The notes: generated from the sequence alone by a model not told the origin. A stretch of DNA of 64,000 bases from Candidatus Saganbacteria bacterium (GCA_016223205.1 JACRPM010000006.1:209228-273227); one strand, 5' to 3'. Shown: positions 4,801 to 7,784, numbered from the stretch's first letter. Translations and numbers: made by a program.

Positions 4801-7784
4801 TCGGGACCAACGGCGCCTGGGGCAGCACCTTTTCCAACAGCCAGTGGGGATTGGATTCCGCGCTTTTGGGAGAGGTGAATTCGACCATCCAAAAAATGCA
4901 AAACATCCAAAAGATACTGCTGATAATAGCGCAAACCCAGCAGGATATCAGGAGCATAGTGATGGCTTCTACTTCCGGGGTTTCAACTTCCGACAATGCG
5001 GACTTGGTACAGTCGTCCCATCGCGCCGATGTGCAGAACCGGCAGGCGGCTTATAAACTTAAACAGGAAATGATCTCCGATGTCGTAGCGGCCCACAACC
5101 GCGCGGCGGCGCAGGACGCCGCCATGGAAAAGGCCTGGATCTCGTTCGGCATCTCGATCGGTTCCGCGGTGGCGGGCGCGGCTTTGGGCGGATTAAACGC
5201 TTTCAGCGATACTTCCACCTGGATTTCCGGAATGATGGACGGGATGTTCTACGGCAGTTTGGCCAACGCGGTCATCAATCTGGCGTATTCGGCCGACGAA
5301 GTCGGCCTCAACAACGGAGGCCTGGGAACGGAAGAAGCCATTCAAGAAATGATCGATAACACCTTCAGGGTGAACCGGCAATCACAGCTGGGGGCCCTGG
5401 AGCAGACCGCGCATGACACGGTTTCGGGAGTGAGCACCAGCCTGGTGACGGATACCGGCAGGGGGAATGTGGCGGTGGATTCGGGGGCCTTTGCCCGGAT
5501 CTCTCAACAACTGGAAAAAATATTCAATTCCCAGATCGCCTTGGCAACTATTGCCCAGGCCTTGATGCGGCAGAATAAAATGGTAGCCCGCATCACGGGC
5601 CAGGCCACGGCACAGGAAGACGGCTTGAGCTTGGAGTCGGTATATCAGGCGCGGGATAACGCTTTCCGGAATCTGGATATCTTAAAACAAAAAGTGCAGG
5701 AATACGCCGATCGTCAGAACCAACTGAACCAACTGCAGCGCCAGCTTACCATGGCGGTAGCCTCGGCGGTGATGCAGGCCGTGAGCGCCTACATGAAACT
5801 CGACGGCGATGAGAGATTGACGGAAGCATTGAACGGTGCGTTCGGCGATGAAGCCACCATTACCATAACTGAAGATCCCGTTGCTCAACAGCTCATGACA
5901 GGCGGCAGTGAGACCTGGGACGGCAAGCTGGGGGTTGGGGACCTGGTGGGTGTAGCTTTGAATGTGGTCATGTCCGACAACTTTGCCCAACTGATCGCCA
6001 CCCAAATATACGACAATTTATTGGCTCCCAGCCACAGCAGCAACAATTCTGGAAAACGGGTGGAAGGCGGTAAGTCGGTTTCCCGGGATTCCATCGATTA
6101 TTTCGAAAAAGCGGCTTTTCAGCTCGAAGTTGAGACCGGTGAGCTGGAGCTCGAAGCGGAAAAACTGGAGATCATCCAGCAGTTGGCCAAGGAGTTCCAG
6201 AAGATCATGACCGCCCTGGTTAAGGACGGTTTGCACGGCTTGGGAAGGGTGAGACAGGATGTCGACCCCCAAACCGCGGCGGTAGAACAGGCGGGCGACC
6301 TGCAATCGGCCGAGTCAGGCAGTCAAGCGGATATGGTTCCTATCCCTGTTGAAACCACCGCCGGCCCCGACACACTTTTGCCTCCGGAATATACTCAAAA
6401 ATATAGCGAGTTAATGGCTCAAGCGGTCGGTAATCCGGAAGCTGCCGTAGCGTTGGTCAGACAGCTGGCCGAGCTCAACCGGGAAACTTTTTCCGCGCCC
6501 GAACAGCAGGAAGCCGCTCATGCCGCACTGCTCTTGGCCGCGCAGGAACTTAGCCAAAAGATCGAAGCTTCCAATATGCAATCCTTGGGCCGGCAGGCAT
6601 TATCTCCCAATGCCGGCCCACAAGAGAAGGCCTTGGCTTTGGGTACAATAGCCGCGGCAGCGGAAAACAATCCCCAGGTTCGCGCCCAGTTTGAACAGAT
6701 CGTACAAGAAGCCGCCCTTCAATTGGCTCAAAGCGAGCTCACCCCGGAAGCCGCGCAGCAATTATTCGCCGTAGCGGCCGAGTTCCGTGGCGCCAAAGAA
6801 ATACTGACCGAGACCTTGCCCTCCGCGGTGCTGCTGGCCTCCGCCGAAGCGCCCGCCGAAGGGCAGACCGAACCGACCAGTCCGATAACTAGAGCCGTCC
6901 TCCAATTAAAAGATGATGTCGAAGTAGCCCGGCAGATCGCCGAGGAAGGCGGACGGCCCGACCTGGGATTGGTAAGACAGGATGTTTTAAAATTGGCGCA
7001 ACTTCTTCCTCAACAGGAAGCCGGATTAAATCTGCAGGTCATCCATGATAATGTAGAAAACTATACCCCCGAACAATTGCTGGTGGTGCTCGAGCAGATA
7101 AGGAAGTTCACGCTTTCGGCCAACGAGCGCTCCTTACTCGATTCCGCGATCCAGGGGCTTAAGAACATCCAAACCCAGGCCGCGCCGGCTTCTTTTGCCG
7201 CCAATTTCCTGCAGAAGGTTAGAAGCCCGCAAGGAACGGCCGAAGACCTGATCGGCATTTTCCAGGCTGGGACCGAGGAAGAAAAAGTTTCGGCCCTCGC
7301 CCGCATTCGTAGCGCGCTTATCTTAAATGACGGGACCATTGCTTTGGCGCCCGAGCAGCAGCAAAGAGTGGCCGCGTTCCTGGGCCTGGTGGCCGACCTT
7401 TCCCAAAACCCGCAGATCAAACAGGAGGCCCGCGCCCTTTACGACGAGATCGCGCCCCGGCTTCCGCAAGAGGTGGAAAGTACAACCGAAGCCGAAGCTC
7501 AAATTGAAATGCCGCAAGTATCGATGGTCCTGGACGGAGTCCGGCAGGTGGAAGCGGGCAGGGTGGCGATTTTGGCCAATGGGTTGCCGGAGGAGAGAAG
7601 GGAAGAAGAGGAACACAGAACACAGAGCACGGAACACGGAACACAGGGAGAAGAGGAACCCGACCGCCCCGGCTTGCCCCGAGCTCTGTCGAGGGGATTT
7701 GACCCAATCTTCGGAGGACTGGGCGCCAACCAGCGCATCATTGAAGAGCACCGACAGCAAGTGGACTCCGCCGCACTAGCGTAA
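1812..7784 (+). CDS. Giant protein (1990 aa) of unknown function: N-terminal globular region with poly-Pro (PPPPPPPP) and a DxNGDGxxD Ca-binding-like motif, central transmembrane hairpin clusters, long Ala/Gln/Glu-rich coiled-coil C-terminal half
   Basis: Single uninterrupted 5.97-kb ORF. Hydrophobic stretches LAAIILAAAGTVAGGLGAMAAISLFAAMTALG (nt ~4500-4635) and ISFGISIGSAVAGAALGG...LANAVINLAY (nt ~5140-5290). Poly-Pro at nt 2089-2112. Heptamer tandem repeat at 7611-7645. Confidence 0.7.
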   Translation: MPSPIITNYQIIGDDLKERLDVNANIEAAYLKADDSVNFEVIEKAASDSVSLNTGSSSTTSTSSVDLERLAECVGNYIVNEDDMETHSTTVDEPPPPPPPPSSSTSDVSDDQATQDAIAAADQRTADGEFALTHGGLTREQWDEFIRQLRDMGEIGNFIADLLEANPDKAVEILSIFLDPEASGILDGITQGSAYQERTQGTLRKMAEYIARNGYGFGNYWGWMLSNGQISIALEMLGLERVGSDFNGDGISDYIENGSYDYLKNNGYDTELYRDAEGNYYVARMEGDRLVFHRVNVTYNGEDRWGGKISIEFCDGAGDLSVDLSDPAFGLKDWQLALLRGASADEIFNLLLLDKLKGLGIELPPGCELPEGFDIENLGSDLKDFLLGWKNQMWVGTDDGGTDYIYVSEKFFELMKDLELLYNLKATLYLLANAKMELRKMVLEITTGFKTEASKYSLIDAAESERSLSSAQVRYQLYTLQRYVNSYNNKIYEELRTQARRDAIDEAEDSAWNWLNTIFTFGLGGAMNNDIEARFNRKMEDIERKRADFQARIEAKYEAAFGGMNFDAGDPFSKGIGDLVKNFTFDGTNVNVGDSKWDLDGNVVLETDVRLTAMQNLRRIWYTLQLAKAKLRKTVSEIVGGREGGGGGFEGVIMGAVDSAATFEKQAFQTLHRQMSAIVFSHNNMIDFGRAADEADEDWWISMFCTPLWILAPAGEALAGYLVDLAQAPYDQDANFRLTEVNVQQVLDRVFEDMSDITRNVLDSDAEAIRFINQLDAEMWGVVGELNDTAAVMTGDDDIQNIDESIVSGLRDKLVAKQNLTRAIVIFLRAKMGMRDMVAKIIRKTDQSTELIGSEALNDLGDSKRLAFELKLQNMTNRIQEHNNQVAESVSLKKAGLKFIMTLAAIILAAAGTVAGGLGAMAAISLFAAMTALGSSVSDLIFNATHPVDAGSFDQGRFYDNPQAKVTGDLLIDTYNNLDQQTREQVDSLSSDSHQSIGTNGAWGSTFSNSQWGLDSALLGEVNSTIQKMQNIQKILLIIAQTQQDIRSIVMASTSGVSTSDNADLVQSSHRADVQNRQAAYKLKQEMISDVVAAHNRAAAQDAAMEKAWISFGISIGSAVAGAALGGLNAFSDTSTWISGMMDGMFYGSLANAVINLAYSADEVGLNNGGLGTEEAIQEMIDNTFRVNRQSQLGALEQTAHDTVSGVSTSLVTDTGRGNVAVDSGAFARISQQLEKIFNSQIALATIAQALMRQNKMVARITGQATAQEDGLSLESVYQARDNAFRNLDILKQKVQEYADRQNQLNQLQRQLTMAVASAVMQAVSAYMKLDGDERLTEALNGAFGDEATITITEDPVAQQLMTGGSETWDGKLGVGDLVGVALNVVMSDNFAQLIATQIYDNLLAPSHSSNNSGKRVEGGKSVSRDSIDYFEKAAFQLEVETGELELEAEKLEIIQQLAKEFQKIMTALVKDGLHGLGRVRQDVDPQTAAVEQAGDLQSAESGSQADMVPIPVETTAGPDTLLPPEYTQKYSELMAQAVGNPEAAVALVRQLAELNRETFSAPEQQEAAHAALLLAAQELSQKIEASNMQSLGRQALSPNAGPQEKALALGTIAAAAENNPQVRAQFEQIVQEAALQLAQSELTPEAAQQLFAVAAEFRGAKEILTETLPSAVLLASAEAPAEGQTEPTSPITRAVLQLKDDVEVARQIAEEGGRPDLGLVRQDVLKLAQLLPQQEAGLNLQVIHDNVENYTPEQLLVVLEQIRKFTLSANERSLLDSAIQGLKNIQTQAAPASFAANFLQKVRSPQGTAEDLIGIFQAGTEEEKVSALARIRSALILNDGTIALAPEQQQRVAAFLGLVADLSQNPQIKQEARALYDEIAPRLPQEVESTTEAEAQIEMPQVSMVLDGVRQVEAGRVAILANGLPEERREEEEHRTQSTEHGTQGEEEPDRPGLPRALSRGFDPIFGGLGANQRIIEEHRQQVDSAALA
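7611..7645 (+). repeat. Imperfect tandem heptanucleotide repeat (GAACACA x5 with variants GAGCACG, GAACACG) followed by GGG, in-frame inside the giant ORF
   Basis: gaacaca gaacaca gagcacg gaacacg gaacaca ggg; encodes EHRTQSTEHGTQ. Confidence 0.8.

Follow-up and report, generated by a model that had tools for sequence, protein, structure and literature searches.

Why do four protein-coding genes carry tandem repeats of seven nucleotides (nt), a period that is not a multiple of the codon? The question is raised by a 64-kb stretch of DNA from a Candidatus Saganbacteria bacterium (GCA_016223205.1 JACRPM010000006.1:209228-273227), all 64,000 nt of which are referred to here as the window. The original prediction described heptanucleotide arrays in a giant open reading frame (ORF), in thyX and in dxs, and likened them to STRR, the short tandemly repeated repetitive sequences of cyanobacteria. 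Tandem Repeats Finder (TRF) confirms all three and adds another in polA, so that the window holds four period-7 arrays, not three. They are probably tolerated linker sequence that homogenizes itself, that is, inherited heptamer arrays kept uniform at the DNA level within permissive protein segments, and most likely they have no function of their own.

Arrays in four coding sequences

The four arrays have the top four TRF scores of the window. An independent autocorrelation scan finds the same four at period 7 and none in the window at periods 4 to 6 and 8 to 15, and 50 shuffles of the window yield 0.0 arrays; the four arrays are real and nonrandom. Each consists of four to five imperfect units lying in frame within coding sequence. 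With 7-nt units arranged head to tail in 4.3 to 5.3 copies, 84 to 86% matches and a length beyond chance expectation as judged from the shuffles and the other periods, they are by definition heptanucleotide long simple-sequence repeats (LSSRs), the class that includes the cyanobacterial STRR. A period-7 TRF hit at 38004-38027 (GGGGCTG) was set aside as chance and encodes a conserved HisF motif, and two-copy hits at 13137 and 43147 were discarded as too short.

The array of the dxs gene (39538..41382, plus strand; 1-deoxy-D-xylulose-5-phosphate synthase) lies at 40990..41028 on the plus strand (TRF 40991-41027; 5.3 copies, 86% matches, AGAAAAT) and reads GAGAAAG TAGAAAA TAGAAAA TTGAAAA TGGAAAA TAGG. 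The encoded peptide, EKVENRKLKMENR, forms part of the linker between the pyrimidine-binding and C-terminal domains (domains II and III), between the Pfam Transket_pyr match, which ends at residue 480, and the Transketolase_C match, which starts at residue 492. Residues 485 to 494 are predicted as coil with a predicted local distance difference test score (pLDDT) of <50. Lacking the usual GKGE hairpin, the linker falls 8 to 9 residues short of its length in solved Dxs structures. The window Dxs and a subclade of relatives are without this near-universal hairpin, LEIGKGEIVF, after RYPRG (window 40972-41031 versus 6409-6553 of the related locus L084). The hairpin is kept in the two most similar Dxs homologues (P0002 and P0004; 83 to 85% in the alignment), and more distant homologues (75 to 77%) have the deletion and the array of the window, a distribution that could reflect repeated loss or recombination within dxs.

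The gene thyX (14292..15680, minus strand) encodes a two-domain flavin-dependent thymidylate synthase with Pfam PF02511 matched in two stretches. Its array at 14959..14996 on the minus strand (TRF core 14961-14990; 4.3 copies, 86% matches) has the unit CTGTGTT, the reverse complement of GAACACA, and reads GAGCTTA GAGCACA GAACACT GAACACA GAACACA GGG in sense. It encodes ELRAQNTEHRTQG in the inter-domain linker, a segment modeled as a helix end followed by inter-domain coil with lowered pLDDT. The length of this linker is constant across the clade, and a heptamer-type peptide is common to homologues down to ∼60% identity.

In polA (51105..53753, minus strand; DNA polymerase I), the array at 51263..51297 on the minus strand (TRF 51265-51297; 4.7 copies, 84% matches, AATTTTG) has the sense units TCAAAAG TAAAAAG TCAAAAT TCAAAAT TG. 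It encodes NSKVKSQNSKL directly before the QVHDE motif, and this peptide aligns ungapped to FPRLEEMGARM of Taq Pol I; the array therefore represents no net insertion.

The remaining array, at 7611..7646 on the plus strand (5.1 copies, 86% matches, consensus GAACACA), comprises GAACACA GAACACA GAGCACG GAACACG GAACACA, with GGG next. Its peptide, EHRTQSTEHGTQG, belongs to the acidic tail of a 1,990-amino-acid (aa) ORF (1812..7784, plus strand), 45 codons upstream of the stop. This ORF shows no Pfam domain match; its orthologues span 2,005 aa in the related locus L087 and 1829+ aa in L088, with orthologous arrays in the same tail (TEHRTQST in L087 and ELRTRSTEHGAQG in L088). The C-terminal 25 residues (FDPIFGG...HRQQVDSAALA) are well conserved; before them the tail varies greatly, array included.

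The sites are thus the inter-domain linker of ThyX, the domain II-III linker of Dxs, a surface segment of Pol I and the tail of the 1,990-aa ORF, with a net insertion of 0 among the arrays for which it can be tested. Domain and structure comparison bears out the earlier placement of the repeats on the coding strand, in linkers or loops, and alignments and structures agree with the claim that no net length is gained. The GG or GGG said to follow the repeats is found as GGG after the giant-ORF and thyX arrays; the dxs array ends in AGG only, and the polA array does not fit the rule.

Inheritance, overwriting and concerted evolution

The Dxs, PolA and ThyX proteins of the window are 100% identical to proteins of Candidatus Saganbacteria bacterium, and their homologues belong to the Margulisiibacteriota/WOR-1. 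NCBI places this clade in the Cyanobacteriota/Melainabacteria group, in keeping with the suspected cyanobacteria-related affiliation of the host. The closest relative is collinear with the window at about 81 to 92% DNA identity; its polA, its thyX and its giant-ORF tail contain orthologous arrays that differ by point substitutions only (its polA array reads TCGAAAT TCAAAAG TCAAAAT GCAAAAA); over about 44 kb compared with this relative, no indel of 7 nt occurs. Amino acid divergence reaches 27% in the PolA array versus 8% in the rest of the gene and 38% versus 11% in ThyX, so that array codons change 3 to 3.6 times faster at the amino acid level, with a nucleotide divergence of at least the gene mean. 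Because of these raised values, there is no sign of sequence-specific constraint. The arrays are vertically inherited positional orthologues and not recent insertions. The comparison of thyX and dxs with their orthologues, which had been proposed as a check, finds arrays in both genes of relatives, and the notion of a recent directed insertion does not survive inheritance across the clade.

Over longer distances, the dxs arrays of the window and of the related loci L085, L210 and L211 allow the units to be compared one by one. All four start as GAGAAA at one common position after RYPRG and have five units; the end TAGGAT is common to the window, L085 and L210, and the end of L211 differs. The units read GAGAAAG TAGAAAA TAGAAAA TTGAAAA TGGAAAA in the window, GAGAAAG TAGAAAG TAGAAAG TTGAACG TGGATAG in L085, GAGAAAT TAGAACG TGGAACG TCGAACG TAGAACG in L210 and GAGAAAT GTCAAAT GTCAAAT GACAAAT GTCAAAT in L211. 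Between the window and L085, unit position 7 differs as A/G four times; between the window and L210, position 6 differs as A/C four times and position 7 as A/G four times. The ispD arrays of L085 and L211 likewise have a common start and end and about the same length, with positions 1 and 2 changed four times each. An identical substitution thus recurs at one unit position in three to four of five units, and unit-specific bases at position 2 are kept. The parallel changes hit first, second and third codon positions with different amino acid effects, so selection on the peptide cannot produce them. The pattern is one of concerted evolution and requires a homogenizing process at the DNA level that preserves register and length. 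Of the "directed insertion or conversion" first proposed, a conversion-type process, by which orthologous units are homogenized in register, is retained, and a recent directed insertion is not.

Comparison with relatives also shows what the arrays replaced. In a gene with a metallo-β-lactamase (MBL) fold, GEMLQGFKIIL of the window corresponds in the closest relative to DSFDICHLTFVIYE, encoded by (TCATTTG/ACATTTG)x5. The hisF gene of L084 has KRTSNVERGAW where KKTG---AGKW is otherwise found, and in the Dxs of an Omnitrophota locus (L009), the RG of RYPRG has given way to an array while the length is unchanged. In these cases, arrays stand where native codons were, and length changes little or not at all. 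Neither the MBL nor the hisF case has a duplicated flank or inverted termini, features to be expected of a mobile insertion of the miniature inverted-repeat transposable element (MITE) or SDR type.

The reading frame accounts for several features of the encoded peptides. As 7 and 3 are coprime (greatest common divisor, 1), a heptamer array yields the same cyclic heptapeptide whichever frame is read, three units (21 nt) cover every codon phase, and the peptide period is 21 nt; strand is therefore the only free variable. GAACACA gives EHRTQNT, and its complement gives CVLCSVF. The observation that both GAACACA arrays encode EHRTQ is correct and follows from the use of the same unit on the same strand in ThyX and the giant ORF. 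It had been taken, as consistency of frame, for a sign of a directed process, but coprimality yields it in any frame. Nor is the peptide nonperiodic, as had been supposed: it repeats every 21 nt, and five units fall short of two full periods.

The A-rich strand is the sense strand in 4/4 host genes. Sense peptides of the Margulisiibacteriota linker and loop families have mean Kyte-Doolittle hydropathies of −0.4 to −2.8, with values of about 0 for the Dxs arrays of L004, L012 and L009 (TCCCATC, TCAGTCA and AGTGGGC families), and the antisense of most families is hydrophobic, Cys-rich or stop-containing. The array at a β-strand site, in the MBL-fold gene of the closest relative, has the opposite polarity, with a sense hydropathy of +2.0. 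Strand follows the suitability of the peptide, hydrophilic in linkers and hydrophobic at the β-strand site, and this coding constraint explains the strand bias that had been read as a sign of a directed process. The avoidance of stops has the same direction: a perfect AGAAAAT, AGAAAGT or AGAACGT array would hold TAG once per 21 nt, and the sole in-frame unit start reads TTG in the window dxs, TTG in L085 and TCG in L210 instead. That coding potential determines the tolerated orientation of a repeat has been argued for another heptamer (MacGregor 2015, PMC4679880), and the present arrays show such control in detail.

Distribution, mechanism and competing explanations

The sample of Margulisiibacteriota DNA amounts to 259 kb and was partly ascertained around array-bearing genes. 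It contains 16 period-7 arrays at a strict threshold and zero at the other periods from 4 to 13, with the harmonic 14 also found. In the first 231 kb, 12/13 arrays are genic; three later ones (L210 and L211) are genic too, and one intergenic array is located in L085. Relatives carry further genic arrays in hisF, ispD, dxs, polA and the MBL-fold gene, belonging to several unit families: GAACGTN (heptapeptide ERRTSNV), AAATCCA (KSKIQNP), AAATGTC (KCQMSNV), TCGAAAT (SKFEIRN) and TCCCATC (SHLPSPI).

As a control, 1.26 Mb of unrelated bacterial loci were used, taken from a scan of genome contigs with the Dxs alignment and mostly from distant phyla; only L003 and L004 are Margulisiibacteriota-like among the matches listed in that scan. 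Period 7 dominates here as well, with 35 arrays versus 10 for periods 5, 6 and 8 to 12 combined, which disposes of heptamers as a cyanobacterial hallmark. About two thirds of the control arrays are intergenic or at ORF edges. Array densities of Margulisiibacteriota and controls are confounded, since loci were fetched around array-bearing genes; with the target genes excluded, genic arrays are only about 2.5-fold in excess, and no lineage specificity is claimed. The Dxs linker holds in-frame, length-neutral arrays also in Nitrospirota (L012 and L034, probably one event) and Omnitrophota (L009). The Poisson probability of at least three arrays in this linker is 0.003 with all three counted, and about 0.03 by our own arithmetic at the same rate if the events are taken as two independent ones. 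The Dxs linker stands out as a hotspot across phyla, which would be expected if no other place in Dxs tolerates such sequence.

A metagenome scan with (GARCACR)x3 returned heterogeneous contigs with about half of the matches outside long ORFs, indicating a widespread unit family. Matches were scored as 22 sense and 28 antisense by a longest-spanning-ORF heuristic that is unreliable, as it picks spurious ORFs in repeat-dense contigs and mis-assigned the strand in L118 and in the ispD array of L085; no conclusion on strand is drawn. Contigs from the Ga03022xx samples have up to eight GARCACR matches each, and L102, L113 and L159 are also heptamer-rich. Other array-rich contigs are the Nitrospirota locus L011, with seven CAATCCG-type arrays in 22 kb, and the Ignavibacteria locus L056, with six. 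A distant single-domain ThyX (L140 912-938, Ga0082335_1076998), 35% identical to that of the window, contains a GARCACR array in sense (SRAQSTEHRAQ) within the region aligned to the window ThyX and is possibly another independent genic array in the ThyX family. Shared variants (GACCAC units in both L087 arrays and GAACTTA in both L088 arrays) resembled conversion between loci but are not used as evidence, as a rough estimate gives about two such coincidences by chance.

The favored explanation joins these observations as follows. Arrays occupy segments that the structure leaves free, such as inter-domain linkers, hairpin loops or disordered tails; they add no net length, and in relatives they have replaced native codons. 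They pass on vertically. Over short distances, point substitution erodes them more quickly than it does the remainder of the protein; over longer distances, boundaries, register and unit number are kept while the units are homogenized to lineage-specific variants. In the simplest mechanism, proposed here, neighboring units would transiently mispair 7 nt out of register while DNA is replicated or repaired, a short patch would be copied or the mismatch corrected, and the strands would realign. A unit could in this way be converted to the sequence of its neighbor without an indel, and the repeat may spread into flanking codons. Purifying selection would then act as the filter behind the outcome observed, maintaining the frame, avoiding stops (TTG or TCG for TAG) and leaving the strand whose peptide suits the site.

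Several points weigh against this account. The polymerase misalignment at its core is a step that we infer, and the overwritten MBL site offers no obvious seed in the native sequence. Local slippage also gives no explanation for the exact unit AAATGTC in polA, dxs, ispD and the MBL-fold gene across at least four genomes, for GAACACA in two genes of the window, both arrays ending in CACAGGG, or for the common unit of both L211 arrays; the choice is narrowed by selection for stop-free, hydrophilic, A-rich units, which may still fall short of explaining exact sharing. Arrays overwritten anew, each independently, at the same coordinates could look like concerted evolution, and the sample is small (259 kb) and tilted toward array-bearing genes.

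The sharing of units is what a dedicated or ectopic writing process would account for, in which a few preferred families are copied between loci, or written by an enzyme or from a template, over ∼30 to 40 nt while selection filters the outcomes, in the manner in which STRR families disperse in cyanobacteria. This alternative is unlikely. AAATGTC occurs in polA (L084 and L086), in dxs and ispD (L211) and reversed in the MBL-fold gene (L087); thyX and the giant ORF both have GAACACA, ending alike in CACAGGG; and GAACGTN occurs in hisF (L084) and dxs (L210). The replacements are alike in size and each resembles one deletion-insertion event, many unrelated metagenome contigs carry the GARCACR family in abundance, and another family, TAACTGA, is likewise common to several phyla (PMC4679880). 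Writing is opposed by the vertical inheritance of the arrays as positional orthologues, by the lack of target-site duplications or fixed termini in the cases seen and by three different families in one genome (L084). No transposase, reverse transcriptase or special polymerase is found in the window or the syntenic loci, and the same absence of a reverse transcriptase and a transposase led to rejection of a diversity-generating retroelement or mobile element. Moreover, only a limited number of heptamers are A-rich, hydrophilic-coding and stop-free, so that selection by itself should lead to some sharing. More doubtful still is the particular version in which Margulisiibacteriota, and perhaps the cyanobacterial STRR relatives too, possess a family-specific writing or ectopic-conversion process that overwrites ∼30 to 40 nt with a few preferred units, e.g., by iterative templated repair synthesis or a trans-acting template. 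If true, it would explain AAATGTC in four unrelated genes and the single-event-like replacements, and coding regions would merely reveal it, the reading frame locking length and register.

It is improbable that the arrays are functional cis-elements, such as protein-binding RNA or DNA sites or translation-pausing tracts at domain boundaries that aid cotranslational folding. Arrays do recur at domain boundaries (Dxs II-III and ThyX inter-domain) and in the same Dxs linker in three phyla, and regulatory roles have been proposed for four-heptamer elements of Geobacter (PMC2700814) and for the TAACTGA repeats (PMC4679880). The recurrence in linkers is a prediction of the tolerance filter, however, and the unit sequences are wholly different between orthologous sites (AGAAAAT, AGAACGT and AAATGTC) and inside a single genome. 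The codons of the arrays change more quickly than those elsewhere in the gene and show no constraint at the nucleotide level, and an Rfam scan of the window gives no match.

Phase variation, suggested at first because a one-unit slippage would switch the host gene on or off, is very improbable and is contradicted at the assembly level. A period that is not a multiple of 3 inside ORFs and the precedent of neuO (PMC13001214) speak for it. The units are imperfect (84 to 86% matches) and only four to five in number, however; 7-nt indels are absent from the comparison with the closest relative, the unit number is kept among orthologues, and copy-number polymorphism is seen neither between assemblies nor between orthologues. 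The hosts are core housekeeping genes (dxs, thyX and polA, and ispD and hisF in relatives), two of them of essential function (dxs and thyX), rather than accessory, surface-related or restriction-modification genes. Two independent Logan assemblies of different sequencing runs (L001 and L002) agree at every base of the dxs array region, so this array is not an assembly artifact, which had been named as an outcome that would overturn the prediction. Chance or assembly artifact, for which no supporting point was found, is refuted and practically without probability, as the shuffles predict no arrays, the other periods give none, the dxs sequence is the same in independent assemblies and several other genomes carry orthologous arrays.

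Relation to known repeats and accompanying small inserts

STRR have been described since 1990, with CCCCAGT, TTGGTCA and CAACAGT as the canonical units of STRR1-3; Vioque is said to have described one within the gene for RNase P RNA in 1997 (cited in PMC4748335). The arrays of the window resemble them in the heptamer unit, the shortness of the arrays, the few families at several loci, the permissive places within functional genes and a host lineage in the Cyanobacteriota/Melainabacteria group. They differ in unit sequence, in a host that is not a heterocystous cyanobacterium and in a protein-coding location instead of an intergenic or RNA-gene one; the STRR1-3 units named above never occur in tandem in the 259 kb of Margulisiibacteriota DNA. 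STRR families have many dispersed copies per genome; as to dispersal here, two loci within the 64 kb carry GAACACA, and AAATGTC is present in four genes across at least four genomes.

Heptamers are the most abundant class of LSSR in many prokaryote genomes (Mrazek, Guo and Shah 2007, via PMC4679880 and PMC4692102), with polymerase slippage as the proposed origin, a mainly intergenic location reported and coding units expected as multiples of 3. The arrays share with LSSRs the tandem 7-nt units longer than chance, and the control set reproduces the dominance of heptamers; they differ in that 4/4 window arrays are in frame in conserved genes, with length-neutral replacement and register-locked concerted evolution. 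Geobacter metallireducens has four tandem heptanucleotide repeats of the GGACCGG family in 49 copies, as well as sites of five heptamers, and intragenic ones are listed (PMC2700814). These GC-rich units are read as regulatory RNA elements or binding sites, and frame, orthology, overwriting and concerted evolution are not reported for them. TAACTGA direct repeats of Beggiatoaceae, Cyanobacteria and Bacteroidetes occur in two to six copies, with stops in one orientation and LSVISYQ in the other, and a few lie inside ORFs (MacGregor 2015, PMC4679880). They form one family, mostly just upstream of start codons and, if in ORFs, at protein ends, and for them, too, no analysis of orthology, overwriting or concerted evolution is reported; here, several families occupy internal linkers of housekeeping enzymes. 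The arrays share with the Geobacter and TAACTGA repeats the dispersal of two to six heptamers over genic and intergenic sites, and neither GGACCGG nor TAACTGA is ever tandem in the 259 kb of Margulisiibacteriota loci. The neuO gene of Escherichia coli K1 contains (AAGACTC)n with 3 to 53 perfect units, a number that differs among members of a population; the tract is situated at the 5′ end of this accessory, phage-borne gene and serves as an on/off switch (PMC13001214). A heptamer array inside an ORF, translated in frame, is common to both cases, and the perfect, variable switch features of neuO are absent here.

The arrays do not constitute a new molecular system; they fall within a known repeat class in an unusual place, in frame within essential enzymes. 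Less expected are the homogenization of orthologous arrays to lineage-specific units and the overwriting of native codons. In cryptic simplicity, slippage-like processes homogenize and spread short motifs within coding DNA; here, essential reading frames lock register and length, and conversion is therefore separated from expansion and contraction. Most study of heptanucleotide arrays has concerned intergenic DNA, whose length can vary freely. As a one-unit length change is barred in essential frames, the present arrays isolate the homogenizing component, and with dense sampling of Margulisiibacteriota, nature's own test of short-patch conversion and template switching could be made quantitative. 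Through the arrays, moreover, linkers in Dxs, Pol I, ThyX, IspD and HisF evolve rapidly, which calls for care in the alignment, phylogeny and annotation of these proteins.

Small inserts of another kind occur in or near the host genes. A near-palindrome of 19 to 21 nt (CGTGCCTACCGGCAGGCAG, plus strand) at 16265-16283 lies in frame near the 5′ end of an ORF at 16244-17014, whose L087 orthologue matches a PD-(D/E)XK nuclease, and the closest relative is without exactly these 21 nt. The same near-palindrome recurs in opposite coding orientation at L086 11132-11147, within a 23-aa insert in the PolA exonuclease domain of another Saganbacteria genome. It looks like a tiny repeat, dispersed and possibly mobile, similar to the SDR repeats described for Nostoc. 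Several Margulisiibacteriota PolA proteins have short inserts, e.g., GTGLVPVR(G/KN)QP, at one site in the 3′-5′ exonuclease domain (alignment columns 383 to 427), which at the protein level suggests hairpin-forming DNA. The window PolA has ARDLGRPQGPP at this site (polA about 52600-52700), where indels of 6 to 8 nt relative to the closest relative cluster. In one relative (L089 7424-7559), a 39-nt block that encodes SRGFYPADSVRGS and has the internal direct repeat TCCCGAGG/TCCGAGGG is nested in the thyX heptamer array, and the ThyX homologue P0273 has DVARDKN at the same site. Both look like small insertions that the array either attracts or tolerates.

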